Shown: positions 18,819-54,600 of the stretch, one piece after another
Position numbering within the stretch: position 1 is the first letter of the stretch
Layout: the number at the start of each line of letters is the position of its first letter
Source of the DNA: Dehalococcoidia bacterium
GTDB lineage: Bacteria > Chloroflexota > Dehalococcoidia > Lucifugimonadales > CATOSD01
Direction of reading: 5' to 3'
NCBI GenBank assembly: GCA_034421955.1
Contig: DAOUJZ010000044.1
Span: 2,310 to 66,309, forward strand
DNA length: 64,000 nt
The notes under the pieces: generated by a model
Told to the model about the DNA's origin: nothing
The model's input: the letters and a program-made list of their open reading frames with translations, nothing else
The model's database searches: none
Made by a program: the position numbers and the translations under genes

Positions 18819-18895
18819 GGCGCATTCGTCTAGTGGCCTAGGACACCGCCCTCTCAAGGCGGAGATCAGGGGTTCGAATCCCCTATGCGCTACCA
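18819..18895 (+). tRNA. tRNA-Glu (anticodon CTC), CCA encoded
   Basis: GGCGCATTCGTCTAGTGGCCTAGGACACCGCCCTCTCAAGGCGGAGATCAGGGGTTCGAATCCCCTATGCGCTACCA. Anticodon arm is CCGCC-CTCTCAA-GGCGG and T-arm AGGGG-TTCGAAT-CCCCT. The D-region is like E. coli tRNA-Glu. Confidence 0.85.
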
Positions 18896-20499
18896 CCGTT
18901 TACTGTAGACAGAACCGGCTTGGGGATGGCGACGTCTTCGGCATTCATCCCGCCTATCCCGCTGTCCTGAGGCATCGGTATCGAGTACCGCACCTTGGCC
19001 TCGCCGGGGGCCACCACTATCTCCTTCACGAACGACTGGATGAACGACCTTCGCTCAGTTAGCTCGCTCTCGTTCAGCCACACGCTCATGTCCTTGGCGA
19101 ACGCCGTGATGGTCTCCACGTCGTCCAGCCGGACCCTACGCTCGGAGAGCATCGCCTTCGCCTCACGCGCAGAGTCCTGTAGCTTTCGCTCCCGCTCCCT
19201 GTGCTCTCGGATGCGCGGCGCTATGTCCGTGATGTCCAACTCGGTGGTCTCGATCGCACGGTAGAGCCTGTCCAGCCACCGCCGCACGTCCGCAAGCTCA
19301 CCCTCGATGGACTCCAGTTTTCTTCGTTGCTCCCGCGCGACGCCGTCCATCTCCTCGTCAACCAGCCTCACAAGTTCCCTGATATTGCTCTCGGTCAGGA
19401 TCGTGGAACGTATCTTTCCGACCACTAGCCTCTCGAATCGCCTGGCGTTAAGCCGTGGGGTCTTGCACGCTCCCTTTCCGTGCTTCAGGGCCGACTGGCA
19501 CACGTAGTACGAGAACCTGCCGCTCTTGGCGTCCTGGCCGGTGAGCGCTCTTCCACAGCTCTTGCAACTGACCAGTCCGCTGAGCAGGTAGGAGCTCGCC
19601 ACACGCCTGGGGTGGGCTCTGGACGGTGCCCTGGACCTGAGCAGTTCCGAGACTCGCTCGAACTGAGACTTGGAGACGATTCCTGGGAAGGCGTCTTCCA
19701 CCCTCACCGGAGGGGCCTTGTCCTTTGCCAAGGTTCCCCACACGAGCGTTCCCTTGTAGGCCTCGTTCGTCAGCATCTTATGAACCACGGTCTTCGACCA
19801 GCGCTTCCCGCCGGGACTCGCGATGCCCTCTGAGTTAAACTCCTTGGTAATGTCGAGAATGCTCTTGCCCGACTCGGCCATGCGAAACATCCGCTGCACC
19901 ACCACCGACGTACCCGGCTCTATCTCCAGCCTGGGCCGCTTCTTAGCGCCGTCTTGCACGTGCACCTTCCTGTAGCCGTAGGGGGCGCTCGGCGTTATCC
20001 AGAAGCCGCGAGAGGCCGCTTCCCGCATACCCCGAACGACTTCTTGCGCGAGATTCTCACTGTAGAACTCGTCCACGCTCTCTATGATGGCCTCCATGAG
20101 CTTGCCTGTTGGTGTGTCGTCGGCGTGCTCGGTGATGGAGACGACGCGAATGCCCTTGCGCCGCAGCATCGACTTGAAGGCGACCGCATGCTCGCGTTTT
20201 CTGGTGAACCGAGAGAACTTCCATACCAGAATGACGTTAAAGGGTGCCTCGTGACGACTCGCCTCTTCTATCATCTTGCGGAACTGTGGCCTGTCTGCAA
20301 TACGGCCACTCTCGGCTTCGTCCACGAACTCTCGGGCTACGGAATAGCCGTGGGCATTGGCGTAGTCCTTGAGCGCCCTCAACTGTGCCGATACGGACAG
20401 ATCCACGTCTTGCTTGTCGCTGGATACCCTGGCGTAGAGGGCGGCAGGGGTGTAGTCGTAACTATTTTTCATCTTCTTCTCCTGATTCATCCTGGCCAT
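18883..20499 (-). CDS. Large serine recombinase (integrase)
   Basis: 538 aa. ALYARVSSDKQ carries the catalytic Ser of the resolvase domain. It also has a recombinase domain, a zinc ribbon (CKSCGRAL...YYVCQS) and a C-terminal coiled coil. Its TAG stop (18883-18885) lies inside the tRNA-Glu acceptor 3' strand. Confidence 0.9.
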   Translation of the reverse strand: MARMNQEKKMKNSYDYTPAALYARVSSDKQDVDLSVSAQLRALKDYANAHGYSVAREFVDEAESGRIADRPQFRKMIEEASRHEAPFNVILVWKFSRFTRKREHAVAFKSMLRRKGIRVVSITEHADDTPTGKLMEAIIESVDEFYSENLAQEVVRGMREAASRGFWITPSAPYGYRKVHVQDGAKKRPRLEIEPGTSVVVQRMFRMAESGKSILDITKEFNSEGIASPGGKRWSKTVVHKMLTNEAYKGTLVWGTLAKDKAPPVRVEDAFPGIVSKSQFERVSELLRSRAPSRAHPRRVASSYLLSGLVSCKSCGRALTGQDAKSGRFSYYVCQSALKHGKGACKTPRLNARRFERLVVGKIRSTILTESNIRELVRLVDEEMDGVAREQRRKLESIEGELADVRRWLDRLYRAIETTELDITDIAPRIREHRERERKLQDSAREAKAMLSERRVRLDDVETITAFAKDMSVWLNESELTERRSFIQSFVKEIVVAPGEAKVRYSIPMPQDSGIGGMNAEDVAIPKPVLSTVNGGSA

Positions 20500-20704
20500 G
20501 GCCTCCCAGTCGAGACCTGAGCCTCTCCAATCGTTCCCGCCTTCGCCACTCGCGCTCTTCCATGTACAGCCTGATCGCCTCTCGAAGCAGTTCGCTGACG
20601 GAGCGGTCCTCCTCCTTCACAACCCGGCGCAGTTCCCGCGCCATATGCGGTGGAAGCGAGAAGGTGATAGTCTCGCTCTTCCTGGGCCTGGCTGGCATCG
20701 TCAC
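20462..20704 (-). CDS. Ribbon-helix-helix (CopG-like) protein
   Basis: 80 aa. ETITFSLPPHMARELRRVVKEEDRSVSELLREAIRLYM is a typical RHH beta-strand plus two helices. It lies immediately upstream of, and overlapping, the integrase gene. Confidence 0.65.
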   Translation of the reverse strand: MTMPARPRKSETITFSLPPHMARELRRVVKEEDRSVSELLREAIRLYMEEREWRRRERLERLRSRLGGHGQDESGEEDEK

Positions 20705-20743
20705 TCCTTGGCTGCAATTCGATAAGATATTGTCTTACTCTAT

Positions 20744-20775
20744 ATCATACCATCACCTACCTCCAACTAACAGTT
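20744..20775 (-). promoter_or_regulatory. Candidate promoter for the RHH-integrase unit
   Basis: The minus strand reads TTAGTTggaggtaggtgaTGgTATGAT. This is an extended -10 (TGnTATGAT) about 45 nt upstream of the RHH start, in an AT-rich gap. The -35 spacing is suboptimal at 15 nt. Confidence 0.3.
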
Positions 20776-20841
20776 AGCCTAAGGGGATTACCGCATGGGC
20801 CTCGGCATGTTCGACGCAATCGCTTGGAGTTCCAGCACTGA

Positions 20842-21677
20842 CTATTCAGGGCGAGGCACTGCAACCACTACGACCTTCGCCAGCTTTCTCTTCCATAGCA
20901 CCGGACGGGCGATGACGGCGTAGCCATCTCTGCGCTGATACTGTGTGCACACCCAGTGGACGGCACGATCGGCCAGAGAGCCCGCCGGCAACGGCCTGCC
21001 CCATCGGGGGAGCCCTCCCTCTGTTCCCGAGAGCAGGCGGGAGGGCCGAGTACCGAACCCGACGTCTTGCGAACCACCGTCGCCCGGAGGTCTGGCGGCT
21101 CGGTCCAGCATGCGGCCCCCCTCGAGACGTTCGTAGAGGACGGTCATCAGCGGCGGGTCCCGCACTACTTCGGCTAGGCGCAACGTCACTGACGCATATG
21201 AGCAGCGGAACTCGCGCCGCAGTGCCAGGACGTCCAGGCCAGTGTTTCGCGCCATGAGAGAGAACGGCTCCGGTTGCATCAACACCGCCGCTGCGAAGCG
21301 CTCCGCCTCCCTACAAACTCTGCGCCCCGGCGCCACCTCCGGGTGGAGCTCGCAGAGCGTCTCCCAGATGATCTCGTAGGTCTCGTGGAGTATCGTGAAC
21401 TCTCTGGCACCGTCCCAGAAGGGTCTGTCGGTAGTCGATGTCGTAGCACGCCGCCCGGAGCGCTGACGTGAACACCCCTCATACCGTCTAGGTGCGCTCC
21501 GTTCACCATGCCAAACCCGGCCCCTTCAAGTAGCGACTTCAGTGCGGCCATGGTGGGACGACCCGATAGGCCAAAGTATCTCACGAACCTAGCGGCCACA
21601 CTCTCCGGGTCTGGCTCCTCCCTAGTTAGGCCGTCTTCCAGCAGAGTGCGGCAGAAGTCCATTCTCCTCCTTCTCAT
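20842..21677 (-). pseudogene. ImmA/IrrE-like metallopeptidase (DUF955-like), frameshifted
   Basis: The N-terminal part is in the frame of ORF 21279..21677. The C-terminal part (REFTILHETYEIIWE...EAERFAAAVLMQPEPF) continues in the frame of ORF 20842..21336, upstream of its listed start. At least one -1 shift near 21400-21440 is needed to join them. Its start overlaps the stop of the XRE gene (ATGA). Confidence 0.5.
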
Positions 21678-22114
21678 TCCAGCAGCCTCTTGTCTGTGAA
21701 GCGCTCGTACATCTCGACGATGAAACGCTTGGCGCTGACGGACAGCGGGCCGTCAGGTCGCGTTCCAACGCGGAAGGCGGGGTCAGCAAGCACGAACCGA
21801 AATGCCCGCTCGACGTCCAAGGCCTCGTCGCTGTTGGGTGAGGGTTGCCCCGTGAGCCCCGCGCGCCTTATCAACAGTTCGGCATCCACGTTGTAGGCTT
21901 CGGCCAGCCTGCGAACGAGGCTCCGCCCAGGCCTCCGGGCTCCCCTCTCGATCTGTGAAAGGTACGAGGCCGAGACCCCCACCATCCTGGTCACGTCGCG
22001 CAGGCTCAGTGCTCCCCTCAGCCTTCTCAGAAGCATTCCTAGATCCTCTACTGCGTCCGCGTTCTCGACCAGATGGTCTAGGCGCTCTTCCATGACGCTC
22101 TCTCCTTGCTGCAA
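21674..22114 (-). CDS. XRE-family HTH regulator (ImmR/CI-like repressor candidate)
   Basis: 146 aa. LRRLRGALSLRDVTRMVGVSASYLSQIERGARRP is a canonical HTH_3 motif. It is divergent from a Cro-like HTH operon and coupled to the ImmA-like gene. Confidence 0.8.
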   Translation of the reverse strand: MQQGESVMEERLDHLVENADAVEDLGMLLRRLRGALSLRDVTRMVGVSASYLSQIERGARRPGRSLVRRLAEAYNVDAELLIRRAGLTGQPSPNSDEALDVERAFRFVLADPAFRVGTRPDGPLSVSAKRFIVEMYERFTDKRLLE

Positions 22115-22237
22115 GATCGGACTTGCCTCCTGCCGGTCTCTGCCACATGGTTGCTACATTGATGTTCAAACAGAGGGAACACTTTGGTTCTTCAAGCCTG
22201 ATTGCTTGCCAGGGGTCTTGCATCCGTGGGCCGAGTG

Positions 22238-22266
22238 TTGTTACGCTCTGGCGTACAGAACATTAT
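22238..22266 (+). promoter_or_regulatory. Candidate rightward promoter in the switch region
   Basis: TTGTTA (22238-22243), a 17-nt spacer, then CATTAT (22261-22266), about 85 nt upstream of GTG 22351. It is surrounded by repeated GAACA/TGTTC half-sites. Confidence 0.3.
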
Positions 22267-22350
22267 TTCTATTGCTCGAACAAGTATACATCACGGGCGC
22301 GGGATGGGTCTACTGCCTTGACCGCACACCGGAACCGCGGGAGCTGAAGC

Positions 22351-22515
22351 GTGAGTGGCAAGGGCAAGCAGGGACTTACAGAGGAACAGGAACGGCGTCG
22401 CATTGCCGGGCTTCGGATACTGGCCCGCATCATAGCTCGCCACTGCCTGGCCCACCCCGAACTGTACGAGAAAGACGCGGCCGGGGAGACGGCCCGGAAG
22501 GAGGGCGCGGCGTGA
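22351..22515 (+). CDS. Small hypothetical protein (54 aa)
   Basis: Below the ORF-track size cut-off. GTG start with a GGGAG RBS. Translation is VSGKGKQGLTEEQERRRIAGLRILARIIARHCLAHPELYEKDAAGETARKEGAA. Its stop overlaps the next start (GTGA). Confidence 0.35.
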   Translation: MSGKGKQGLTEEQERRRIAGLRILARIIARHCLAHPELYEKDAAGETARKEGAA

Positions 22516-22751
22516 CGCGTAGGCAGCCATCTTCGAAAGTGAGGCTCAACCCCGACAGGGTGTGGGAGCTACTCAACAGGCTCAACATGTCCCAGAACGA
22601 GCTTGCACAGCTTGCCGGCACGTCGTCGGGCTACCTGTCGCAGCTCATGTCCGGTACACGGAGACCGTCGGCCCAGCTTCGGAAGAGGCTGATGGAGGCT
22701 CTCGGAGTCACACGCTTTGAGGATCTGTTCATCCTGGAAGTCGTGAAGTGA
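22512..22751 (+). CDS. XRE-family HTH protein (Cro-like)
   Basis: The real part of ORF 22092..22751 is VTRRQPSSKVRLNPDRVWELLNRLNMSQNELAQLAGTSSGYLSQLMSGTRRPS... Confidence 0.7.
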   Translation: MTRRQPSSKVRLNPDRVWELLNRLNMSQNELAQLAGTSSGYLSQLMSGTRRPSAQLRKRLMEALGVTRFEDLFILEVVK

Positions 22752-23074
22752 GAACCGGCCGGCTGCCATCCCATTTCATCCTGTACGATGGCCTCATACC
22801 GGAGGACTTCCCAAAGAGGCTCGACACCTTCAAAGAGACCACGGAACTCTCTTGGGACTCACTCGCAGCGTGCTTGGGGGTGGACACTCGCCAGCTTCAG
22901 CGGTGGCGCAAGGGGACCAAACCCAGCGGCGACGGACTGTTCGCGCTACTACTGCTGGCGGCACGCGTTCCCGGCGGAGTCCACACGCTGTTGGGCGTGC
23001 ACGTCCTCCCCCCGGTGGTGATCAACGACGCTGCACGGGACGCAGGCTTCACTGCGTCTTGCGACGACCGATAG
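22748..23074 (+). CDS. Small HTH-like protein, paralog 1 of 3
   Basis: The shared pattern is DFPxRLxxFKExxxLSWxxLAxxLGVxxRQLxxWRxGxxPSG...LLLLA...PGG. The GTG start overlaps the previous stop. Confidence 0.55.
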   Translation: MRTGRLPSHFILYDGLIPEDFPKRLDTFKETTELSWDSLAACLGVDTRQLQRWRKGTKPSGDGLFALLLLAARVPGGVHTLLGVHVLPPVVINDAARDAGFTASCDDR

Positions 23075-23083
23075 GAACTAGCG

Positions 23084-23380
23084 TTGGGAGTGCAGCGCCG
23101 CGTACACCGATATGTCGAGTTCGATTTTCCGGCTGACTTTCCGGAGCGGTTGGCGCAGTTCAAGGATGCCAGCGGGTTGAGTTGGAGAGGGATCGCCCGT
23201 GCGCTAGGTGTCAGCCCCCATCGTCTGCGGCAGTGGCGCAACGGGCGTGCGGTTCCCGGCACCGCCCATCTATTTCTGCTACTGACCGTCGCCGAGAGCA
23301 TGGGCCTACGCGACGGGGTCCTGATGTGTCCGCGCCGCGATCTTCCAGAGTGCGCGGACCTGGACGTCCGAAGGCGATGA
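23084..23380 (+). CDS. Small HTH-like protein, paralog 2 of 3
   Basis: FPADFPERLAQFKDASGLSWRGIARALGVSPHRLRQWRNGRAVPGTAHLFLLLTVAE. Confidence 0.55.
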   Translation: MGVQRRVHRYVEFDFPADFPERLAQFKDASGLSWRGIARALGVSPHRLRQWRNGRAVPGTAHLFLLLTVAESMGLRDGVLMCPRRDLPECADLDVRRR

Positions 23381-23468
23381 CAAGATTGCAGGATGATTCG
23401 ATGACGTACCTATATCGCCGAAAAGGCAAAGGATGTAGTCGCAATTCAAGAAACAAGGAGGAAGAACC

Positions 23469-23768
23469 ATGACTACTGCGGATCGGAACCGAATCGATAG
23501 GCGAGGCCTGCCGCCCTTTCCTAAGGACTTCGGAGAGCGGCTCGAGCTGCTGAGGGAGATGAGTGGCATGTCGCGGACGGAATTCGCTGACATGATCGGA
23601 GTGACGGAGCGCGGGCTTGCTAAGTGGCTCAAAGGAGGGCCACCTTCGGGGGCTTACTTCTGGGCCATTTTGGAGTTGGCCCAGGACGTTCCCGGCGGCT
23701 TGGAGCTAGTCTTGTACGGACCTGACTGGGTCGAGAGGCAAGAAACGGGCGGGTGGGTGAACGTGTGA
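23469..23768 (+). CDS. Small HTH-like protein, paralog 3 of 3
   Basis: FPKDFGERLELLREMSGMSRTEFADMIGVTERGLAKWLKGGPPSGAYFWAILELAQDVPGG. It has an ATG start. Confidence 0.6.
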   Translation: MTTADRNRIDRRGLPPFPKDFGERLELLREMSGMSRTEFADMIGVTERGLAKWLKGGPPSGAYFWAILELAQDVPGGLELVLYGPDWVERQETGGWVNV

Positions 23769-24606
23769 ACTCCTCTAATCTGAACGAAACCGACGCCTCC
23801 GCGTTTAGGTCCATATCGACAGTAGTGCGGGTCAGAGTGAAAGCCGGTTAGGAAGGGTCGCCTAGGTGAAAGACCTTGGGCGCTATGGCCCAGACCTGCG
23901 GGCTGGGCATTCCTGCCCAACCATTAGACCTTCGAGGCACCGAATCCCATGCTGGCCTCCATGAGCGTGCTAGTAGAACAGCTGTGTCTGTCATCCGGGG
24001 ACAGAATTCTCGCGCTTCTGGTCCCCCTGTTCGTCGGGTTGATGATGTCCGTCCGGACATAGACTGGGGACCGCCGAACTATCTCGTCGCACGCTAACTT
24101 CCTCTCGGTCCCTGGACCTGAGTTGAAGGCAGTCCCGTGTGGTCTTGGATTTCCGCAAATCGGAGGCTGGGCGCCAGACCGTCTCAACCCTGGTGCTAGC
24201 TGCCGAACCTCCCGGCGAACAGTCGCGGACCACGGTGATGAAGGCACCCAGTCGCAAGGAGCATGCCCGGGCGGGATGCCGGGTTACAGGGGGAGACCCT
24301 GAGACCGCGCCTGTCGAATTGGCTCGGAACGCCAGAGTGTTCACAGGCTGCCAGGCTCGATATGGAGATGGTGTTGCCTACCGCCCAATACGCCTTCAAA
24401 ATGTTGGCTGGCATGGATCCGTGTTCGAAGACTTCCGCAGGTCTGACTTGGGGAACATTGCAGGAAGTTCCCTACCATCACCTGCCATTCGCGAGTCATC
24501 GACTCCGGTTCTGAGGTTCCGGCGGTAATGTCCGTCGGTATGCCGTGGAGCAAGCACAGCCATTGGCGTCCGACGTGAGTGAAATCTGACTGTTCGTGCT
24601 ACCGAC
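23769..24606. other. ORF-poor region of about 840 nt, hairpin-rich, no recognisable coding potential
   Basis: All six frames are broken into short ORFs with no recognisable motifs. Local hairpins include GGGCA-ttcc-TGCCC (23904), GGTCCCC...ATGTCC-gtcc-GGACAT...GGGGACC (24020-24072) and GGTCT...AGACC (24141-24180). Confidence 0.4.
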
Positions 24607-24668
24607 AGCCGTCCGCAGGGAGTGGGTTCTCAAGTAGAGGCGGAGACCCTCCTGCCGCCGGGACGGCT
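24607..24668 (-). terminator. Long nested hairpin downstream of the replication-relaxation gene
   Basis: AGCCGTCC-GCAGG(G)AG-...GGGT-CTC-aagta-GAG-ACCC...-CTCCTGC-cgccg-GGACGGCT. It lies about 50 nt past the stop at 24718. Confidence 0.45.
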
Positions 24669-24717
24669 CAGACTCACAGTTCGTTTCCGGGGTGGCACAC
24701 CCGTGTACCTTGGGCTG

Positions 24718-43585: not shown

Positions 43586-43620
43586 GCCACACGTATGAGT
43601 CCTAACCGGAGGAGAAAACC

Positions 43621-44175: not shown

Positions 44176-44270
44176 ACGACAGCGACCGGGTCGCGGCGCA
44201 GCGCCCGGCATCCCACGCGGGGACTTGCCCCGCGCTCCACTCACAACACAAAGGACGAAGGAGGACCGCG

Positions 44271-45397: not shown

Positions 45398-45416
45398 GCA
45401 AGAAAGGAGACACGAC

Positions 45417-46454: not shown

Positions 46455-46558
46455 ACGGCCCGCTCAGGACCGCATCCCCACGAGGCTCCGCCTTCTCTAC
46501 AGGAACGGCGGGCCTCGCTTCGTTTCGGACGAAACCCCACATATGGAAGGAGAAGAAG

Positions 46559-46855
46559 ATGCAGACGATGATGGTCATGGAACCCTGCTGCCGGTGCGGG
46601 CAGCCCATCGCCCCTGGCGAACCGGCCATGCAGACCGCCTCGGTTGACCTGGACGAGTACGGCAGGGCCGTGTCCTCACCGGTGAAGTCCTGCCACCTGA
46701 GCGGGCGCTGCTACGAGGAGCACAGGCGCCCTGAAAGCCGCCTAGGCTACGCGACCAAGCGCCTCGACGCTTGCAGGGCTTACCGGCAAGTCGTCTTGCC
46801 TGTATCACGTCCCGGTTTGGATGGCAATGTCAAGCGAGAGGAGAAGAGTCAGTGA
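46559..46855 (+). CDS. Small Cys-rich hypothetical protein
   Basis: 98 aa. It has CCRCG near the N-terminus plus additional Cys/His residues. GGAGAAGAAG RBS. Confidence 0.4.
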   Translation: MQTMMVMEPCCRCGQPIAPGEPAMQTASVDLDEYGRAVSSPVKSCHLSGRCYEEHRRPESRLGYATKRLDACRAYRQVVLPVSRPGLDGNVKREEKSQ

Positions 46856-47097
46856 CTACGCAACGAAGAATCTACGGTGAACGCATCCATAAGGGAGAGG
46901 TCATCGGGTATCTCCCGTCCGCTCGGAGAGCGGAGTTCAAGACGGACGGCGGCGAAGTGATAGTCTGCGACGTCGATCTGTCCACCGGGAACTGCGACCT
47001 CAACGCATACCTGGAGAGGCCGCACAGCGCCTGCGTCACCCGGCATGGCCCGGACCGCCCCGTCATGGTGGAGTTCTACCCTGCGGAAGGGGGATGA
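46852..47097 (+). CDS. Small hypothetical protein
   Basis: 81 aa. GTG 46852 overlaps the previous stop (GTGA). Translation is VTTQRRIYGERIHKGEVIGYLPSARRAEFKTDGGEVIVCDVDL... Confidence 0.4.
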   Translation: MTTQRRIYGERIHKGEVIGYLPSARRAEFKTDGGEVIVCDVDLSTGNCDLNAYLERPHSACVTRHGPDRPVMVEFYPAEGG

Positions 47098-47264
47098 TCG
47101 ACACCAAGACGACACCCGGCCCGGCCATCAAGAACGGTACTTCGGCCCCGCCTGTCCGTAGATACGGCGCGGCACTGGACCGCCAAGCCCAATAGACGGC
47201 TCTCCCAGAGCCGCAGATCACGAGGCCCGCCGTCCGCGTGTCTCGCACAGCCAAGCAACCGCCT

Positions 47265-47293
47265 GGGGGCGTTGCCAGAGCCGAAACGCCCCC
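47265..47293 (+). terminator. 9-bp GC hairpin in the 317-nt gap upstream of the helicase gene
   Basis: GGGGGCGTT-11 nt-AACGCCCCC, with no U-tract. Confidence 0.35.
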
Positions 47294-47372
47294 AAGTGGG
47301 GCGACGCACACTGCGTTGTCCCGCAATCTCCGCCCTCCGGCGTTGATTGGGGGAGTGGTGCGCCCGGCTCAC

Positions 47373-47413
47373 GGCGTCGTCCTCCGGCCCACAACGCATA
47401 GGAGGACGACGCC
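47373..47413 (+). promoter_or_regulatory. RBS-sequestering perfect 13-bp hairpin directly in front of the SNF2 helicase start codon
   Basis: GGCGTCGTCCTCC-ggcccacaacgcata-GGAGGACGACGCC-c-ATG. The 3' arm contains the GGAGGA Shine-Dalgarno and ends 1 nt before ATG 47415. Confidence 0.5.
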
Positions 47414-47414
47414 C

Positions 47415-49766
47415 ATGAACCTCGGAGGATTCATAGATACTTTCAAGGACGCCATCGCCCGGCGGGTGGTGGAGTCCTACCCGCCGCTCTACCGGCCCTC
47501 GGAGAACGGCGGCACGCTCCCCCGCCTGCTTCGGCGGCCCCTCGGAGCGCAGGCCGACGCCATCAGGGGCGCGGCCCTCTCGCTTCAGGCCCACCGGGGC
47601 ACCACCGTCGTCGGCGAGATGGGAACGGGCAAGACCTTCATCGGGGCCGCCGCCGCGCACATGGCGGGCTTCCAGCGGGTGCTCGTCATTTGCCCGCCGC
47701 ACCTGGTGCGGAAGTGGAAGCGGGAAGTGGAGGAGACGGTGCCCCTGGCCCGGGCCGTCATCGTCACCTCCATCACCGACCTGGAGAAGCTCAGGCTCTC
47801 CATCGGCTCCGGCCCCCTCTTCGCGGTAATGAGCAGGGAGCGGGCCAAGCTGTCCTACCGCTGGACGGCCGCCGTCATCTACCGGTGGGCCACGTCCAAG
47901 GGCAGGCTCATCAGGGAGAAGGCGACCGGGGAGCCCTTCAAGGTTCCCTGCTGCCCGACCTGCACGGCGCAGGTCGTGGACAAGGACGGGGTGCCCCTGA
48001 CGGACAAGGTGCTGAACCGCAGGAAGCACGTCTGCGTGGACTGCGGCTCACCCCTGTGGCAGGCCGACAGGTCCGGTCCCGCCCGCTACCCACTCAGCGA
48101 CTACGTGAAGCACCACATGCCGGGCTTCTTCGACCTGCTCATCGGGGACGAGGTGCATGAGTTCAAGGCCCGCGGCTCGGCCCAGGGCATCGCCGCGGGA
48201 GTCCTCGCCGACGCCTGCGGCAAGTCCCTCAGCCTGACCGGGACCCTCCTCGGCGGCTACGCCTCCACCATCTTCCATCTCCTCTACAGGTTCAGCCCGG
48301 AGATTCGCACGGAGTTCGGGCGCTCCGACGAGGGGCGGTGGATCAAGCGGTACGGCTTCGAGGAGCACTCCATCGGCAAGAACGACGACGACGCCCTGGA
48401 GGATGGGCGCAACAGCCGCCGCCGCAAGTTCCGCAAGGTGGTCAGGGAGAGGCCGGGCCTCGTGCCCTCGGCGCTGTTCCACATCATCGGCAACACGGTG
48501 TTCCTGCGGCTCTCCGACGTGGCCTCGGGCCTGCCCGACTACGACGAGCAGATCCTCCTGTCCTCGATGGACTCGGAGGAGGACGCCACCGGCTACTCCC
48601 AGCGCAGCGCCTACAACACCGTGTTCGAGGAACTGAAGAGGGAACTGTCCAAGGCGCTCAAGGCCGGCTCCAAGCGGCTGCTGGCGACCTACCTCCAAAC
48701 CCTGCTGGCCTACCCGGACGGCTGCACGAAGGGTGAGTCGGTGTTCGACCCCCGGAGCGGCGACCTTATCGTGCAGGTGCCACCGCTGTCGGAGGAGCGG
48801 CTCTACCCCAAGGAGCAGGCGCTGGTGGACCTGGTGGCCGCCGAGCGGCTGGCGGGGCGCAGGGTGCTGGTCTACGTCACCCACACGGGGACGCGGGACA
48901 TCACCGGCCGCATGGACGACATACTCACCCGGCACGGGTTCCGGGTGGCCGTGATGAAGGCCGAAGCAGTGGCTCCCGACAGGCGGGAGGCGTGGGTGGC
49001 CGACAGGGTGGCGAAGGGGCTGGACGTGCTCATCTGCCATCCCCGGCTGGTGCAGACGGGCCTCGACCTCATCGACTTCCCGACGATTTGCTGGTACGAG
49101 ACCGACTACTCGGTCTACGTGATGCGGCAGGCTTCCCGCCGGTCGTGGCGCATCGGGCAGACCCGCCCGGTGAAGGTGGTGTTCATGTCCTACCGGAACA
49201 CCCTGCAGGCCGACGCCCTGAAGCTCGTCGCCAAGAAGCTGCAAAGCTCCCTGGCCGTCGAGGGCGAGCTGCCGGAGGACGGGCTGGCCGTCTACGGCGA
49301 CGACGGGGACGCCCTGATGATGGCCTTGGCCCGAAAGATCGTGAGCGGCGACGAGGAGGACGCCGACGACGAGACGGTGGAGGAGGTCTTCGCCCAGGCC
49401 AGAGACGCCGAGGCCAGCGCCGAGGAGCTGCTGGTGGACGAGGGATGGGAGGCCGTCGAGTTCGAGCCGGAGACCATAGCGGTCAACGGCAACGGGACCG
49501 ACGGACACCACGCCAACGGCCACGACGACCTCCTCGGGCCGACGGTCAAGCTCGTACCGAGCACGGCCCAGACCTCTAACGGCAACGGGGCTAACAGACA
49601 CCACGACGAGGCTGAGGAGCCGCAGCAGTCGCTGTTCTCCTGGGCCGAGTTCCTGGCCGAGCCGGTCAAGCCGAAGCGCCGCAACGGGAAGCCCCAGCCC
49701 GCCTCCATGTCCATGTTCGAGTGGGCAATGGAGCAGGAGAGGGAGACGGTCGGCGCGGGACGCTAG
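47415..49766 (+). CDS. SNF2-family helicase with inserted zinc-ribbon
   Basis: I set the start at ATG 47415. Walker A is GEMGTGKT, DEAH-like motif LLIGDEVHEF, and motif VI QASRRSWRIGQTRPV. The insert is CCPTC...CVDCGSPLW, and the C-terminal tail is acidic. Confidence 0.8.
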   Translation: MNLGGFIDTFKDAIARRVVESYPPLYRPSENGGTLPRLLRRPLGAQADAIRGAALSLQAHRGTTVVGEMGTGKTFIGAAAAHMAGFQRVLVICPPHLVRKWKREVEETVPLARAVIVTSITDLEKLRLSIGSGPLFAVMSRERAKLSYRWTAAVIYRWATSKGRLIREKATGEPFKVPCCPTCTAQVVDKDGVPLTDKVLNRRKHVCVDCGSPLWQADRSGPARYPLSDYVKHHMPGFFDLLIGDEVHEFKARGSAQGIAAGVLADACGKSLSLTGTLLGGYASTIFHLLYRFSPEIRTEFGRSDEGRWIKRYGFEEHSIGKNDDDALEDGRNSRRRKFRKVVRERPGLVPSALFHIIGNTVFLRLSDVASGLPDYDEQILLSSMDSEEDATGYSQRSAYNTVFEELKRELSKALKAGSKRLLATYLQTLLAYPDGCTKGESVFDPRSGDLIVQVPPLSEERLYPKEQALVDLVAAERLAGRRVLVYVTHTGTRDITGRMDDILTRHGFRVAVMKAEAVAPDRREAWVADRVAKGLDVLICHPRLVQTGLDLIDFPTICWYETDYSVYVMRQASRRSWRIGQTRPVKVVFMSYRNTLQADALKLVAKKLQSSLAVEGELPEDGLAVYGDDGDALMMALARKIVSGDEEDADDETVEEVFAQARDAEASAEELLVDEGWEAVEFEPETIAVNGNGTDGHHANGHDDLLGPTVKLVPSTAQTSNGNGANRHHDEAEEPQQSLFSWAEFLAEPVKPKRRNGKPQPASMSMFEWAMEQERETVGAGR

Positions 49767-49860
49767 ACCGCATGGAAACGGGAGAGGCCGTCGCACACAA
49801 AAGCGGCGGCCTTCCCGCACACGGAAATGCATGTATCACAATCGGAAAGGAGAAACACCA

Positions 49861-50058
49861 ATGGCACGCGTGTTTGTGTACGACGACAGGGAGTTCCCGG
49901 ACCCCGACCCCCAGATGACCGTCGAGCAGGTGAAGGGAACGCTCGCCGACTTCTACGGCGAGATCGCCAACGCCTCGGTCAAGGAGACCAAGCGGGGCGA
50001 GGACACCGTCTACGAGTTCCAGCGGCGGGTGGGCACCAAGGGGGCCTTCACCCGGTAA
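49861..50058 (+). CDS. PRTRC system protein C (ubiquitin-like)
   Basis: 65 aa starting at MARVFVYDD (GGAAAGGAG RBS). RVFVYDDREFPDPDPQMTVEQVKGTLADFYGEIANASV...DTVYEFQRRVGTKG matches the PRTRC_C pattern, including the C-terminal G(T)KG. Confidence 0.7.
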   Translation: MARVFVYDDREFPDPDPQMTVEQVKGTLADFYGEIANASVKETKRGEDTVYEFQRRVGTKGAFTR

Positions 50059-50069
50059 GGAGGCTTCCG

Positions 50070-50300
50070 ATGGACACCCGAACCTTCGCGGGTCTGCTGG
50101 CGGCCTCGCCGCCGGTGGACCTGCGCATCATCGAGCTCACGGCGGAGCTCACACGGCCCGACGGCACCCTCGACCTGGACGCCGCGGCGGCACGGCAAAA
50201 GGACGTGGAAGCGGCCTGCGCCCAGGCGCAGGACTACGCCTCGACCACGGGGCGGCTCAAGGAGGCGCTGCGGTGGCGACTGCGGCCCCGACGCTCCTGA
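50070..50300 (+). CDS. Small hypothetical protein inside the PRTRC cassette
   Basis: 76 aa with an AAGGAGG RBS. Translation is MDTRTFAGLLAASPPVDLRIIELTAELTRPDGTLDLDAAAARQKDVEAACAQ... I could not equate it with PRTRC protein E. Confidence 0.4.
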   Translation: MDTRTFAGLLAASPPVDLRIIELTAELTRPDGTLDLDAAAARQKDVEAACAQAQDYASTTGRLKEALRWRLRPRRS

Positions 50301-51175
50301 GCGGCCTATCCCAACTGCTCCTGCGGCGTCCGCCGTCGCTGCGGGAGCTGGTGACCATCGTCGGGTACGCCGACGACTACGCATGGTTCACGGAGCTGGT
50401 GCGCCGCCTCTTCCCCGACGGGGCGGAGGAGGCGCTCTCGGCCCCCGACGTGCGCACCAGGGTGGAGCGCTTCGCCAACCTGTTCGCAGGGAAGCACTTC
50501 CCCCTCTACATGCCGGTGATCGAGTACTGGATGGAATGGGAGGGGGAGGAGCCTCCCTGGAGCTGGATGCGGAGGGGCATCCCCTTCGACCTGATGGGCT
50601 TCGGCTACGAAGGTCTCCACGAGCTGTGGAACGGCTACCGGGACGGCATCTCGGCCCTGCTCCTGCTGGCCAGACCCCCTGACTCTCTCTACGGGGAGTC
50701 CGACGAGATACGGACGGCCTGGCTGGAGTCGGCCGCCGAGCGCATCCCGCAAGAGACCCTGGAGAGGATTCCCCAGAGCGGCATACCCGTCGAGGCCCTC
50801 ACCGAGGCGGTGAAGGACACCCCGTTCGAGGGGACGGCCAAGGCCGCCTCCTGGGTCTTCGCCGAGACGGGCAACTTCTTCCTCGATAACTGCTACGAGG
50901 ACGGGGCGTTTGATGGGTTCTGCGACCCCTGGGAGGACGAGATCATCGCCGAGGGGACGGAAGAGTGGCGCAAGGCCAGCGCCCTGATGGACTCGGTGTT
51001 CACCCTGGCCGACTGGCTGGAGGAGGACCTCCCCGGCCGCTTCGCCGAGATGCTCGACTTTGTGCTGCCGCGAGTGCCCGAACAAGAACAAGGAAAGGAG
51101 GCTAATGACCATGACGACCGACATGGAGAAGACCGAGTGGTCCCTGCCGGGACCGGCGGACATGCCCGCGGATAA
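50273..51175 (+). CDS. PRTRC-associated protein in the position of protein F
   Basis: 300 aa. GTG 50273 has an AAGGAGG RBS. The assignment is by gene order only (C - F - B - A - ThiF). It overlaps the next gene by 71 nt. Confidence 0.35.
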   Translation: MATAAPTLLSGLSQLLLRRPPSLRELVTIVGYADDYAWFTELVRRLFPDGAEEALSAPDVRTRVERFANLFAGKHFPLYMPVIEYWMEWEGEEPPWSWMRRGIPFDLMGFGYEGLHELWNGYRDGISALLLLARPPDSLYGESDEIRTAWLESAAERIPQETLERIPQSGIPVEALTEAVKDTPFEGTAKAASWVFAETGNFFLDNCYEDGAFDGFCDPWEDEIIAEGTEEWRKASALMDSVFTLADWLEEDLPGRFAEMLDFVLPRVPEQEQGKEANDHDDRHGEDRVVPAGTGGHARG

Positions 51176-51821
51176 GCTGAACCTCCAACTGGAGGTCTAC
51201 GAGGAGACCCTGCTGCTGCGGGGCTTCGAGGACGAGTCCGTCTGGGTCAGGACCGTCTCGGCGGACGAGATCGCCAACGTGTTCACCCAGCACCTGGGCT
51301 TCTCCTCGGGGCTCTTGCCCCAGGACGCCCTCTGGTGGAACCAGGGCGAGACCGGGCAGGTGGTGGCCCTCTGGCGGCCGCCCCAGGTCTGGCCCGTGGC
51401 CCTGCAACGGGAGGCGTTCAAGCCGCCCGCCCGGCTCCGGCTTCCCATGCCGGGGCTGGTCTTCGTCTGCTCGCCGGCACGGGCGCCCTGGGTCTACGCG
51501 GCGCCGGAGCGTCCCACGGACCCCGAGCAGCTACTCTACCGCGCCCCCGCCTTCAACGTCTTCAGGGACGGGCGGGTCTGCCCCGGAAGCCACCGGTTCC
51601 CCGAGGAGACAGCACAGATACCGGAGTCCTTCTTCCGGTCCTTCTTCTCCATGACCGGGGACTCGCGGGAGCGTTCGAGAAAGCACCCCGACAACCTGCA
51701 CGTGCTATGGGAGGAGCTGGATGGAAAGACTGAGTACCCGGTTGAGGACCTTGTTCCCCAGTGCACGGTGGCCCAGGCCATCGCGGCCAGCCAAGGGAGA
51801 CGGGGCTATGGCTACCGCTAG
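51105..51821 (+). CDS. PRTRC system protein B
   Basis: I set the start at ATG 51105 (GGAAAGGAGG RBS). LPMPGLVFVCSPARAPWVYAA...LYRAPAFNVFRDGRVCPGSHRFP...ESFFRSFFSMTGD matches the PRTRC_B pattern. Confidence 0.6.
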   Translation: MTMTTDMEKTEWSLPGPADMPADKLNLQLEVYEETLLLRGFEDESVWVRTVSADEIANVFTQHLGFSSGLLPQDALWWNQGETGQVVALWRPPQVWPVALQREAFKPPARLRLPMPGLVFVCSPARAPWVYAAPERPTDPEQLLYRAPAFNVFRDGRVCPGSHRFPEETAQIPESFFRSFFSMTGDSRERSRKHPDNLHVLWEELDGKTEYPVEDLVPQCTVAQAIAASQGRRGYGYR

Positions 51822-52488
51822 CGAGACGCCGCCGGTCGGCTACCTCTTCAATCACAAGGACGGGCTGAGCGGAGCGCAAGGCATCGGCTACGACTACGTT
51901 CTCGGAGCGGGCGGGCTCTTCGTCCAGTCCGAGAGCGCCCACCTGACGGCGCGGATTCCGGTCGCCCCCTGCGAGGTGCGCGGCCTCGCTCCCGTTGCCG
52001 AGAAGGTGGAGCTGGCCCACGGCCCCATCCCGTCCCGGCTGTTCGAGCTGGGGCTGGGCTGGTTTCAAGACGACCCGGACACCGAGCGGTTCTTCGCCGT
52101 GCGCTGGGACGGGCGCTCCTACCGGCTGGTGGTGCCCGAACAGGAAGGGACGGCCACGCGCCTCACCTACCGGCCCCCGGCAGGGGTGGTGGCCGAGTTC
52201 CACTCCCACGGACGCTCCCGCACCTTCTTCTCGGCCATAGATAACAAGGACGAGCAGGGCTTCCGCGTGTACGGCGTCGTGGGACGCCTCGATGCCGACC
52301 GGCCCGAGCTGAGCCTCCGGGTCGGCGTCTATGGCCACTTCGCCCCGGTGGAGTGGCCGCAGGTCTTCGACGGGCCGGAGGCGTGCGTCCGGTTCATCGG
52401 CGAAGACATTGATCTCACAGACAAGGAGGTAATCGAAGAATGCCCTACCACCTGGACAACGCGTTCCTGCTGGACAACCCCTGGATAA
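51808..52488 (+). CDS. PRTRC system protein A (JAB/MPN-like)
   Basis: I set the start at ATG 51808. VVAEFHSHGRSRTFFSAIDNKDEQGFRVYGVVG shows the HxH...S..D JAMM-like motif. It sits before ThiF, as in PRTRC cassettes. Confidence 0.6.
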   Translation: MATASETPPVGYLFNHKDGLSGAQGIGYDYVLGAGGLFVQSESAHLTARIPVAPCEVRGLAPVAEKVELAHGPIPSRLFELGLGWFQDDPDTERFFAVRWDGRSYRLVVPEQEGTATRLTYRPPAGVVAEFHSHGRSRTFFSAIDNKDEQGFRVYGVVGRLDADRPELSLRVGVYGHFAPVEWPQVFDGPEACVRFIGEDIDLTDKEVIEECPTTWTTRSCWTTPG

Positions 52489-53246
52489 CCGTGGTCGGCT
52501 GCGGCGGGACCGGCGGCTTCGTCGCCGAGGGCCTCTGCCGCCTCTTCCAGGGACGGGAGGCCACCATCGTCCTGGTCGACCACGACCGGGTGGAGCCCCA
52601 CAACCTGCTGCGCCAGAACTTCTACGCCGGGGACGTGGGAAGGTTCAAGAGCGAGGCCCTGGCCGACCGGCTGACCAAAGCCTACCGGCGTGCCATCGGA
52701 TACTCGGTCTACCCCTTTCGGGAGTTCGACGACGACTCCCGACCGAACAGGCACGGCTACCCCGGCCTCATCGACTACGGCGAGAGTCTCATCATCGGCT
52801 GCGCCGACAACGCCCTCGCACGGAAGGCAATGGCCGAGTGCCTGCCGGGCCACCCGGCCCGCTGGCTCATCGACGCGGGCAACGACACCAACTGGGGACA
52901 GGTCCTCGTGGGCAACGTCTCCGGCAGGGTGGACTGGGAGGAGCCGCCCTTCGAGGGCGAGACCTGCTACCTGGCCCCCGCGCCCACGCTCCAGCGGCCC
53001 GACCTCCTGACGGCCGTGTCAACCAGGCCGCCCGACGTGGACTGTGCGGCGGCCCTCGACCTCACCGACCAGGACCCGACCATCAACCAGATGATGGCGT
53101 CGCTGGTGCTACAGGTTGTTCGCCGGATGGTGGCGGGCACCTGCCCCTTCATGGCCCTGTACCTGGACATGGACCTGGGAACGGTCACGCCCACCTACGT
53201 CACCCCGGAGGCGGTGGAGCGGACGGTGGGGACCCACGTCGAGTGA
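52440..53246 (+). CDS. PRTRC system ThiF-family (E1-like) protein
   Basis: 268 aa with an AAGGAGG RBS. ITVVGCGGTGGFVAEGLCRL...LVDHDRVEPHNLLRQNFYAGDVGRFKSEALADRL shows the ThiF/MoeB/E1 nucleotide-binding motif. Confidence 0.8.
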   Translation: MPYHLDNAFLLDNPWITVVGCGGTGGFVAEGLCRLFQGREATIVLVDHDRVEPHNLLRQNFYAGDVGRFKSEALADRLTKAYRRAIGYSVYPFREFDDDSRPNRHGYPGLIDYGESLIIGCADNALARKAMAECLPGHPARWLIDAGNDTNWGQVLVGNVSGRVDWEEPPFEGETCYLAPAPTLQRPDLLTAVSTRPPDVDCAAALDLTDQDPTINQMMASLVLQVVRRMVAGTCPFMALYLDMDLGTVTPTYVTPEAVERTVGTHVE

Positions 53247-53291
53247 TCGGCGCACGTGAACGCAATCATAGAACAAGGAGAGGAGAAAACG

Positions 53292-53681
53292 ATGTCTGAC
53301 AAGAACGGAACCACCACGATCATCTGGCAGGACAACCACAGCGGGCTCCGCAGGCACAAGCTGATGACGAAGGAGTTGGGGGACACCATCCCCGCGCTCT
53401 ACGCCAACGAGAACGTCAAAGATTACGACTCCGTCCTCGCTCACGTGAAGCTGTTCAGCCCCTACAGCAACTGGACCTGGTACGTCACCGAGTGGGAGGC
53501 GGAGACCGGCCTCTGCTTCGGCCTCGTCGAGGGGTTCGAGACGGAGCTGGGCTACTTCAGCCTCGACGAGCTGGCGGAGGTCACCGTGTTCGGCGGCGTC
53601 CCCGCCGTGGAGCGCGACCTCTACTGGAAGCCGCAGACCCTGGGCGAGATAAAGAGACAGGCGTCGGGGATCGCCGCCTAG
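53292..53681 (+). CDS. DUF2958-domain protein, copy 2
   Basis: I set the start at ATG 53292 (GGAGAGGAG RBS). It is about 80% similar by eye to 42646..43014 (VKLFSPYSNWTWYVTEWEAETGLCFGLVEGFETELGYFSLDELAEV...VERDLYWKPQTL). Confidence 0.75.
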   Translation: MSDKNGTTTIIWQDNHSGLRRHKLMTKELGDTIPALYANENVKDYDSVLAHVKLFSPYSNWTWYVTEWEAETGLCFGLVEGFETELGYFSLDELAEVTVFGGVPAVERDLYWKPQTLGEIKRQASGIAA

Positions 53682-53733
53682 CCAACTGCGCCCACGAGCG
53701 CAGCCACGGAATCGAACAATGAAAGGAGAGACC

Positions 53734-54237
53734 ATGCCTGACGAAGTTGGAACGGAAGCGACCCGCTCGGATGGCCCGAGCGCCGACGACAGCCTCTTCG
53801 GCGATGCGCCGGACGAGACGACTGCCGCAGACCCGGTGACGGAGGAAGCCACACAGGATACCCCGCAGGACGGGCAGGACGCCGGCGACGAGACGGCACA
53901 GGACGGCAGGGACTCCGGCGACTCAGGGGAGGAGACACCCCAATCGGAGGACCTGAAGGTCGTCGTCTCCATCAAGGGCAGTAGGGCCACTATCGGGGTG
54001 CAGCGGCCCTCGGTGGACCCGCACATCGAGACCTTCGAGGGCCATGACCTGTCCGGTCTGGCCGAAGAGGTCCCGGCGGTGACCGAGAGGGCGAAGGCCA
54101 GGTGGGAGGAGACACCCAAGCACCCGGCCTACGAGAGACCCGCTCCCCCGGCGCGGCGTCGGAACCGTCGCCAGCAGGAGGCAACCGCCGAGGCTGAGAC
54201 CGAACAGCAGCAGCAACAGACGCTGAGGCTGTTCTAG
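53734..54237 (+). CDS. Acidic hypothetical protein
   Basis: 167 aa from MPDEV (AAAGGAGAG RBS). It has a D/E/T/Q-rich disordered N-half, then VVVSIKGSRATIGVQRPSVDPHIETFEG..., then a basic/Q-rich tail. Confidence 0.5.
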   Translation: MPDEVGTEATRSDGPSADDSLFGDAPDETTAADPVTEEATQDTPQDGQDAGDETAQDGRDSGDSGEETPQSEDLKVVVSIKGSRATIGVQRPSVDPHIETFEGHDLSGLAEEVPAVTERAKARWEETPKHPAYERPAPPARRRNRRQQEATAEAETEQQQQQTLRLF

Positions 54238-54272
54238 GAGCCGGTCGGGGTCACCATCGACCGCAGGAGTAC

Positions 54273-54310
54273 GGGGGAGGCTTGTCGCCGCAAGTGCGAC
54301 GGCCTCCCCC
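54273..54310 (+). terminator. Strong nested hairpin after the last ICE operon gene
   Basis: GGGGGAGGC-tt-GTCGC-cgcaagt-GCGAC-g-GCCTCCCCC, 36 nt past the stop at 54237. Confidence 0.55.
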
Positions 54311-54400
54311 GCCCGGACCCATATATGGGGCCTTTTCGCATTACAGGCATGCGTGGGACCTCTTTGCATTTCGGGAGCACTCAAGAAAGGAAGGAAGACG

Positions 54401-54600
54401 ATGAAACTCCATCACTCCGAAATTCTGAAGGCGACCCCGGAGACCGAAGGGAGATTCCAATTGATCAGATACGAAGCGTTCGAGCCGCACCTGTTCGACG
54501 AGAATGCCGCGGAGGAGCAGGCCCATTGCGGCAGGGACACCACCCGCACCGAACGAATCGGCGAGAGGGAATACCTGAATGACCGGCTGAACGGTAACCG
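54401..54600 (+). pseudogene. 5' part of an unknown gene, apparently truncated near 54600
   Basis: GAAAGGAAGGAAG RBS plus ATG 54401. MKLHHSEILKATPETEGRFQLIRYEAFEPHLFDENAAEEQAHCGRDTTRTERIGEREYLNDRLNG looks protein-like. Beyond about 54600 the frame runs on antisense to the next gene, with odd composition. Confidence 0.3.

Follow-up and report, generated by a model that had tools for sequence, protein, structure and literature searches.

The stretch of DNA analyzed here (the window) comprises 64,000 nucleotides of a Dehalococcoidia genome (GenBank assembly GCA_034421955.1, contig DAOUJZ010000044.1, positions 2,310 to 66,309 of the forward strand), and coordinates refer to the window unless stated otherwise. 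Judging from its gene content and from comparison with related loci, the segment from 18,896 to ~54,597 is very likely a member of a large family of integrative conjugative elements (ICEs) of the class Dehalococcoidia. The family is common and often multi-copy in this class, and its general kind is already known, consisting of a monoderm-type type IV secretion system (T4SS), a MOB_C relaxase, and a serine recombinase. We found no account of the family in the literature on Dehalococcoidia or Chloroflexota combined with ICE, T4SS, VirB4, or conjugation. A preliminary description of the region had proposed an ICE with a compact monoderm-type T4SS, a PRTRC cassette, and a recombination/anti-restriction operon. 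Our results supported this proposal, with a cassette that is PRTRC-like, and Pfam and NCBIfam confirmed nearly every gene that had been named on the two strands.

Distribution of the Family in Dehalococcoidia

The distribution of the family was followed through its VirB4 ATPase. The protein collection contained more than 1,350 VirB4 homologues, the best 120 of which were 81–91% identical to the window protein. When one genome per species was scanned, 551 VirB4 loci were obtained, and the best 80 of these were kept for locus comparisons. They were 78–91% identical to the window VirB4, and 79 were labelled as Dehalococcoidia metagenome-assembled genomes (MAGs) and 1 as a Chloroflexi MAG. Many of the kept loci lay on closed chromosomes, with up to five in one genome; the window's own genome has a single VirB4 copy. 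Among 401 genomes sampled evenly across Dehalococcoidia, 66 had a VirB4 match at E <= 1e-30, and most of these matches were 77–91% identical and spread over several GTDB families and orders.

The transfer genes were conserved in 74–80 of the 80 loci at median identities of 57–87%. The highest medians were those of VirB4 (87%), pilin 1 (85%), and the VirB6-like protein (79%), followed by the type IV coupling protein (T4CP; 73%, kept in 79 loci), the Replic_Relax protein (58%), and a 555-aa protein (57%). Orthologues of the recombinase, 59–70% identical, were present at ~35 of the 80 loci. The ThiF gene of the PRTRC-like cassette was found in 43 of the 47 genomes bearing kept loci, at 80–96% identity. 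Of 44 loci on closed chromosomes, 24 had it on the expected strand and the expected side of VirB4, at a distance of 20.4–32 kb (21 kb in the window). The preliminary description had judged the combination of T4SS and PRTRC genes in one element unusual. This judgement fails because the host class turned out to be a taxon in which the architecture is common, as the survey count and the ThiF linkage show. By homology search and tree, the window VirB4 falls outside any well-described ICE family that carries PRTRC.

A second VirB4 lineage, 36–42% identical to that of the window, was observed in other families of the class (G160:C4:34087-35745, G313:C23:165260-166918, G221:C1:807114-808772, and G261:C219:769-2436). 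It forms a separate group in the VirB4 tree, and these sequences point to at least two families of T4SS elements in Dehalococcoidia.

Insertion Site, Ends, and Apparent Decay of the Window Copy

A tRNA-Gln gene and a tRNA-Glu(CTC) gene occupy 18,717–18,895 (ARAGORN, Rfam). The latter (18,819–18,895, plus strand) is identified as the integration target and left half of attB by ARAGORN, Rfam, the empty site, and the junction alignment; an Rfam scan of the window yielded three tRNAs and nothing else. Adjoining it on the minus strand is a large CcrB/DsiB-like serine recombinase of 538 aa (18,883–20,499), whose Resolvase (123.3 bits), Recombinase (75.3 bits), and Zn_ribbon_recom (49.2 bits) domains all score above the Pfam cut-offs and whose best NCBIfam match is CcrB. 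The recombinase stop codon (18,883–18,885) lies inside the tRNA gene, and its final codons (GSA*) are the antisense of the acceptor stem. The element itself starts at 18,896–18,898, directly 3' of the CCA of tRNA-Glu, and not at 18,883, where the preliminary description had placed its left end. The right limit given there, 54,600, is a fair one, though it is a truncation point.

The closed genome G051, of the same genus, carries the empty site. Its left flank is 91–92% identical to the window up to 18,897, and a few bases further on its sequence corresponds to window 59,986–60,213; for this reason, the DNA from 18,898 to ~59,975 is taken as inserted. In G050, another genome of the genus, all that is left of a recombinase at the same tRNA-Glu is its last 56 codons, which implies that this site was used and eroded before. 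Considering that the host genome is a MAG of 97 contigs with an estimated contamination of 7.9%, an element of another organism might have been misjoined to a Dehalococcoidia contig during binning or assembly. Against such an artefact, the left flank is 86–92% identical to eight genomes of the same genus, the two flanks are joined in the exact empty site of G051, a remnant stands at the same tRNA-Glu in G050, and related copies sit within closed Dehalococcoidia chromosomes. We therefore regard a misjoin as effectively refuted. A degenerate second tRNA-Glu, 80% identical and missed by ARAGORN, was also seen in G050 ~36 kb away (G050:C1 ~1,737,087–1,773,270, loci L101–L103).

The geometry of the junction was compared between the window (18,880–18,925) and ten related copies near 19.4–21.2 kb of their loci (L003, L011, L014, L020, L023, L030, L031, L050, L053, and L069), in all of which the recombinase gene lies directly against that of a tRNA (Val-GAC, Ala-GGC, Ala-TGC, or Ile-GAT). 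In the window and nine of the ten copies, a conserved element end (...ACGGTAGAYAGMACCGAGCC...) begins right after the CCA, with a spacing of 9 nt to GTAGA; the remaining copy, at Ala-TGC, has its predicted tRNA end shifted by a few bases, which we read as a prediction offset. Recombinases 97% identical to each other were found at different tRNA species (L003 at Val vs. L030 at Ala-GGC; L053 at Ala-GGC vs. L023 at Ala-TGC), and the comparison suggests that target choice by the recombinase is relaxed and directed to tRNA ends. No copy of the tRNA 3' end was detected on the far side, either within 30 kb in four relatives or in the window. Based on this fixed geometry after the CCA and on the lack of a second tRNA-end copy, the junction is predicted to fall exactly where the tRNA gene ends at its 3' side, with no duplication, and the target would supply the last few codons of the recombinase. 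Insertion in the T-loop with a carried tRNA end, as by DsiB, was considered and rejected, as no direct repeat of the tRNA 3' end occurs in the window or in the four relatives. An inverted copy of the left-end half-site is likewise absent from the window. A few other integrations of serine recombinases into tRNA genes were called rare (PMC3218068).

Other subfamilies of the same recombinase adjoin shared sequences that are not tRNA genes (L008, L019, and L026; L018, L025, L027, L028, L036, L040, and L073), which suggests that some sets of elements are directed to particular protein-coding genes.

A close parallel within the class is provided by the ssrA islands of Dehalococcoides (McMurdie et al. 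2011, PMC3146451), whose DsiB recombinase targets the T-loop and generates a direct repeat of 20 bp, and which carry no conjugation genes. As in the window, a CcrB-like serine recombinase of ~540 aa on the reverse strand adjoins attL at the 3' end of a small stable-RNA gene, and the stacking of the islands in tandem downstream of their target can be listed as a further likeness. In contrast, the window element has its junction at the CCA end, shows no repeat, has a full transfer operon, and lacks any visible DsiA-like small recombinase. How the dehalogenase islands move was left open in that study (PMC3146451) because they encode no transfer genes.

At the right, DNA homology with seven relatives (blastn and alignment) ends at 54,336–54,372, just past a hairpin and two copies of a ~25-nt motif. 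The small gene that begins at 54,401 can be aligned with its counterpart in the relatives over ~65 codons, after which, at ~54,597, unrelated sequence follows. Beyond the point where homology ends, the relatives (L082 at 3,900–4,350, L083 at 9,280–9,600, L084, L085, L086, L087, and L088) have 0.4–6.4 kb of variable cargo and then a conserved, inward-facing helix-turn-helix (HTH) gene of 81–84 aa (MPRQRI...), which stands ~40–100 nt from where homology between copies ends. Neither this terminal HTH gene nor the family right-end sequence was found at the right of the window, which has only three paralogues of the HTH gene, at 22,748–23,768. Thus the relatives have two intact ends (attL and attR), whereas the window copy does not. 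The segment 54,598–59,975 has no similarity to any ICE relative, and the empty-site flank resumes at 59,986; for lack of such similarity, we rejected the segment as ICE cargo and took it as an unrelated patch of mobile DNA outside the family. By these alignments, ~54,600 is a truncation point and no att site. The window copy looks partly decayed, with the family right terminus (the small HTH gene and the attR side) lost and an ImmA-like gene frameshifted, and it has probably lost the ability to excise unaided.

The ~25-nt motif (CATATGTGCGGCCTTTTTGCGTTTCAGG-like; window 54,320–54,372 and the same places in L082–L088) is repeated at the edges of variable cargo blocks toward the right end of family members. 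After circularisation, moreover, the terminal HTH gene of an intact copy would immediately follow the recombinase gene in the same orientation, and the two may form an excision-dependent operon.

Between the recombinase and the transfer operon lie several regulatory genes. The ImmA-like (Peptidase_M78) gene (20,842–21,677, minus strand) is recognized by Pfam and has two apparent frameshifts in a three-frame comparison with the related loci L071, L072, and L074, where its orthologues measure 306–308 aa; a frame change was observed in the ImmA-like gene of locus L068 as well. It is accompanied by a candidate XRE-type HTH repressor, an ImmR-like partner (21,674–22,114, minus strand; HTH_31/HTH_3). 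On the plus strand (22,092–23,768), an HTH_3 protein is followed by the three small paralogous HTH genes (22,748–23,074, 23,084–23,380, and 23,469–23,768), which are related to the relatives' terminal 81-aa HTH gene (tblastn). The 950-nt gap that follows (23,769–24,717) has zero nucleotide conservation across the 80 related loci.

The Transfer Operon and Its Type of Secretion System

Open reading frames were called with guidance from the GC content of third codon positions (GC3), and the proteins were scanned with Pfam and NCBIfam. All genes of the transfer operon lie on the minus strand. VirB4 (29,020–31,362) is identified by Pfam, and its NCBIfam ranking is led by the CD1110 family (conju_CD1110; 218.7 bits, cut-off 325), followed by the VirB4 of Mycoplasma ICEs and by F-type TraC. 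Beside it is a VirD4-type coupling protein of 859 aa (26,358–28,937; TrwB_AAD_bind and TraG-D_C) with two transmembrane (TM) helices by hydropathy, and then a 547-aa candidate relaxase of MOB_C type (24,718–26,361) with winged HTH and Replic_Relax regions of the PD-(D/E)XK fold family (PF13814, 34.9 bits vs. cut-off 25.3). The preliminary description had seen in the latter a replication-relaxation protein standing in place of a canonical MOB relaxase. That contrast has to be given up, as CONJscan treats PF13814 as the MOB_C relaxase superfamily, and in class 8 of the streptococcal integrative mobilizable elements the partners of the PF13814 relaxase are a VirD4 coupling protein and a serine integrase (PMC5357655). 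The window protein agrees with MOB_C relaxases in PF13814 and in the same two kinds of partner; unlike the MOB_C references, it is 547 aa long with two extra winged-helix regions. MOB_C relaxases also include pAD1 TraX and CloDF13 MobC.

Two VirB2-like pilin genes of the family PF18895 (T4SS_pilin) flank the gene for the 555-aa protein. Pilin 1 (33,382–33,699) scores 44.8 bits and resembles the Mbov_0395 pilin-like family of NCBIfam (39 bits vs. cut-off 40), and pilin 2 (31,388–31,702) scores 27.4 bits against a cut-off of 26.6. The 555-aa protein (31,699–33,366) has no family match in Pfam or NCBIfam. Its residues 6–76, with two TM helices, align with the N-terminus of the PrgI family protein of Embleya (hhalign E 4e-4, 28% identity, 35% probability), and no alignment was obtained with Enterococcus PrgI (hhalign). 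In its AlphaFold2 model (mean predicted local distance difference test [pLDDT] score 61, residues 215–515 mostly 70–92), a third TM helix, seen in the hydropathy profile, is followed by three tandem beta-sandwich domains, and Foldseek matches this extracellular part to Ig/FnIII repeats. The PrgI/VirB3-like fusion named in the preliminary description keeps its two-TM PrgI-like N-terminus, weakly, and its ectodomain, the latter with ~355 aa rather than ~380. A polytopic VirB6/TrbL-like membrane protein with multiple TM segments (33,860–34,822; PF04610, 24.5 bits vs. cut-off 25.9) and a membrane-anchored or secreted 208-aa protein with one N-terminal hydrophobic segment (34,826–35,452) complete the operon. 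The core of the 208-aa protein is Ig/FnIII-like by Foldseek of its AlphaFold2 model (core pLDDT 73–91). Because of this sandwich fold it was rejected as a VirB8-like part, and a hidden wall hydrolase in the 555-aa protein was rejected since its ectodomain consists of the three Ig-like domains.

To place the T4SS, a maximum-likelihood tree was built from 23 VirB4 sequences, with MPF_FA and MPF_T references (MPF, mating-pair formation) left out. The window and four relatives formed a clade with 100/100 support on a long stem (1.06 changes per column), nested in a 100/100 group of Firmicutes, Actinomycetota, Mycoplasma, archaeal, and other Chloroflexota sequences whose internal order is not resolved, and apart from the MPF_F and MPF_B references. 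Among PLSDB plasmids, the best VirB4 matches (34–35% identity) were those of the Embleya sp. NBC_00896 plasmid NZ_CP108778 (274–286 kb) and a plasmid of Streptomyces sp. BHT-5-2, followed by Geobacillus, a Ca. Chlorohelix plasmid, and Firmicutes. The Embleya region runs from a large membrane protein through a PrgI family protein, XF1762, VirB4, T4CP, and a replication-relaxation protein to NlpC/P60; the order VirB4 - T4CP - Replic_Relax is thus not peculiar to the window element. Unlike the window, it has an NlpC/P60 wall hydrolase, no annotated pilin, and no PRTRC-like cassette in the 20 kb to its left or right, and it belongs to a linear plasmid that is not integrated at a tRNA gene. With tblastn, the window proteins matched only its VirB4 and T4CP, and the VirB4 tree gave no resolved sister relation. 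To our knowledge, the T4SS regions of Actinomycetota plasmids have only been annotated and never studied experimentally.

Similarities also extend to MPF_FATA systems (pCF10 Prg/Pcf, pIP501, pSK41/pGO1, and the CD1110-family transposons of C. difficile) and to Mycoplasma ICEs, which share with the window the best VirB4 scores and a PrgI-like gene beside VirB4. Pilin 1 resembles Mycoplasma Mbov_0395, and wall-less Mycoplasma can be set beside a host apparently without peptidoglycan. All of these scores were under the family cut-offs, with 20–29% identity. Classical FATA systems have VirB1-like and VirB8-like parts and relaxases of the types MOB_P, MOB_Q, or MOB_T. The window differs from them in its two pilins, in having no detectable VirB1- or VirB8-like part, and in its MOB_C relaxase. 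The pilins themselves, both PF18895 matches over the cut-off, depart from MPF_FATA, from which pilins are absent (PMC12102498).

The peptidoglycan gene murG (TIGR01133) was searched in the host and its relatives. It was over the cut-off in 9 of 14 control genomes and was absent from the host (G000) and from 12 relatives (G048–G055 and G058–G061, closed genomes included). A host lineage without peptidoglycan, as this suggests, would explain the missing hydrolase.

The T4SS of Patescibacteria consists of VirB4, PrgI, VirB6, and PF18895 pilins, mostly without a relaxase, and the origin of its pilins was left open (PMC12102498). The VirB4, PrgI-like, VirB6-like, and PF18895 proteins of the window resemble this set, no VirB8 or VirB1 component was found beside them, and a conjugative role is read from the genes. 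The T4SS could thus have a role of the sort proposed for Patescibacteria, in DNA uptake, protein delivery, or cell-cell contact, with a recombinase that merely moves a genomic island. We consider this unlikely. A coupling protein and a MOB_C relaxase stand beside VirB4 in 76–79 of the 80 loci, unlike in most Patescibacteria clusters; the element has its own integrase and occurs in several copies per genome; and the identity of 77–91% across GTDB families and orders fits recent horizontal spread. Retaining conjugation as the function of the window T4SS, we hypothesize a link between the Dehalococcoidia family and the T4SS of the sister phylum Patescibacteria, which bears pilins and mostly lacks a relaxase.

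The Plus-Strand Operon and the Proposed Mode of Transfer

The second operon, on the plus strand, is 18.5 kb long and starts at 35,859. It is separated from the transfer operon by a divergent control region (35,453–35,858) that was delimited by blastn coverage and whose part at ~35450–35650 is conserved in 9 relatives. This region is a candidate for the promoters and possibly for the origin of transfer (oriT).

The operon includes the PRTRC-like cassette (49,831–53,246), recognized through NCBIfam/TIGRFAM and the Pfam families Prok-E2_D, Prok-JAB, and ThiF. It consists of a PRTRC-like C protein of 75 aa (49,831–50,058; TIGR03738, 51.1 bits vs. cut-off 45.95), proteins of 76 aa and 300 aa of unassigned role, and the PRTRC-like B/E2 (Prok-E2_D; 51,060–51,821), A/JAB (51,721–52,488), and ThiF/E1 (52,440–53,246) proteins. 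The proteins A, B, and ThiF reach 51.9, 66.3, and 89.5 bits against equivalog cut-offs of 101.8, 131.45, and 144.75, so that the models TIGR03737, TIGR03735, and TIGR03736 remain below cut-off, though they are still the best matches. Compared with the PRTRC system of proteobacterial plasmids and ICEs (TIGR03734–TIGR03742), the window has the same order (Ub-like C ... E2-like B, JAB-like A, E1-like ThiF) and the same links to DUF2958, a helicase, and a methylase on a conjugative element. It differs in having no ParB-family gene (no ParB domain was found by Pfam or NCBIfam in ~40 proteins scanned), in the scores of A, B, and ThiF at about half the cut-offs, and in the proteins D, E, and F, which were not detected in the NCBIfam scan.

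In the literature, PRTRC is mentioned mostly for proteobacterial plasmids and ICEs, with a few other contexts, and the preliminary description had taken its combination with DUF2958 and SNF2-methylase genes as a proteobacterial trait. Together with the fact that PRTRC TIGRFAM models are the best matches for four proteins of the window, the literature would suit a recent and unusual chimera, formed when an element with a monoderm-type T4SS acquired a PRTRC/DUF2958/helicase-methylase module from proteobacteria. The data make such an acquisition very improbable. Of 44 family loci, 24 show the combination with its spacing preserved, and ThiF is 80–96% identical among the Dehalococcoidia copies vs. 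~30% to any plasmid homologue. The nearest ThiF homologues among PLSDB plasmids are cyanobacterial and include that of a Ca. Chlorohelix plasmid from Chloroflexota, the scores of A, B, and ThiF stay near half of the equivalog cut-offs, and the GC content is even across both operons. Because A, B, and ThiF lie so far below the cut-offs and their nearest plasmid kin are cyanobacterial and from Chloroflexota, the cassette is best read, from these comparisons, as an old, diverged relative of PRTRC and no recent proteobacterial import; the claim of a proteobacterial trait is not upheld. In the plasmid of Ca. Chlorohelix allophototropha (Chloroflexia; NZ_CP128402.1, 840–8,191 and 92,027–98,792) we observed a row E2 - JAB - ThiF - helicase and a VirB4/T4CP pair, each ~30% identical to the window genes.

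The remainder of the operon was assigned by Pfam, NCBIfam, and motifs. Its first part (35,859–42,555) holds a 304-aa protein of unassigned role and small open reading frames, and then the genes for a DnaG-type primase (38,001–39,242), a Rad52 single-strand annealing protein (39,314–40,333), a TSCPD-domain protein (~40,925–41,371), and a 395-aa Cas4-like nuclease (41,368–42,555). The last is called from the pattern C...D...ExK...QxxxY...CxxCx5C, read directly from the sequence; no Pfam or other profile match was obtained, and a PDB sequence search yielded nothing useful. The TSCPD protein, which stands alone between the Rad52 and Cas4-like genes, is kin to the C-terminal part of B12-dependent ribonucleotide reductases. 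The next part (42,646–49,766) begins with a first DUF2958 gene (42,646–43,014) and contains SSB, RadC, two genes of unassigned role, and a small Cys-rich protein, together with a DUF6094/N6 methyltransferase (~45,417–46,454; NPPY at residue 195) and a superfamily 2 (SNF2-like) helicase (47,238–49,766; ResIII/Helicase_C). The helicase of the preliminary description was confirmed as such, with its SNF2 label based on weak matches only. Downstream of the cassette (53,256–54,597) come a second DUF2958 gene, a 172-aa acidic protein, the terminator-like hairpin, the two motif copies (54,320–54,372), and the cut-off small gene (from 54,401), as judged by Pfam, blastn, alignment, and protein comparison.

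A mode of transfer can be proposed from these parts. The recombinase would excise the element as a circle, and the MOB_C relaxase would nick oriT, possibly in the divergent region. The coupling protein would then pass single-stranded DNA to a small VirB4-powered pore. Because the hosts appear to have no peptidoglycan, this pore would need no cell-wall hydrolase and could dispense with it, and the pilins and Ig-like surface proteins would make the cell contact. In the recipient, the plus-strand operon would act: primase, SSB, and the Rad52 and Cas4-like pair would rebuild and protect the incoming strand, and the orphan methylase, helicase, RadC, DUF2958, and the PRTRC-like ubiquitin-type cassette would counter host defences.

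Several points weigh against this reading of the window as a member of a conjugative family. First of all, excision through a circular junction and transfer are predictions from the genes. The VirB6 and PrgI assignments are weak (TrbL at 24.5 bits below its cut-off; hhalign E 4e-4 with 35% probability), the AlphaFold2 models are of moderate confidence (mean pLDDT 61–63), and no VirB1-like wall hydrolase or VirB8-like (PrgL, NTF2-like) component was found by Pfam, NCBIfam, or Foldseek of the two Ig-like proteins. The loss of peptidoglycan is suggested by a single marker gene, oriT is only a candidate, and the roles given to the plus-strand operon are inferred by analogy with other conjugative elements. 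Moreover, the breaks in the ImmA-like gene could be sequencing errors as well as decay.

Taking the whole together, we tentatively suggest that the family may be the main conjugation system of Dehalococcoidia, distinct from the described classes as a T4SS of monoderm type that would build a VirB2-type pilus, would do without a hydrolase in a host lacking peptidoglycan, and would be the conjugative counterpart, and possibly the source, of the Patescibacteria T4SS, with a recombinase that is a generalist for tRNA 3' ends. So broad a combination is plausible, yet we would not call it probable.

No paper on conjugation genes in Dehalococcoidia was found when the literature was searched. The helicase, methylase, and DUF2958 genes and the PRTRC-like cassette represent an accessory module widely shared by conjugative elements and are no proteobacterial signature. 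Intact copies in the closed genomes, such as the one around 575–615 kb of OZ242014.1, could serve to study excision, the choice of targets by the recombinase, and the formation of pili. With members in roughly one in seven Dehalococcoidia species and an identity of 77–91% across GTDB families and orders, the family is a candidate vehicle for gene flow in an abundant, mostly uncultured group.

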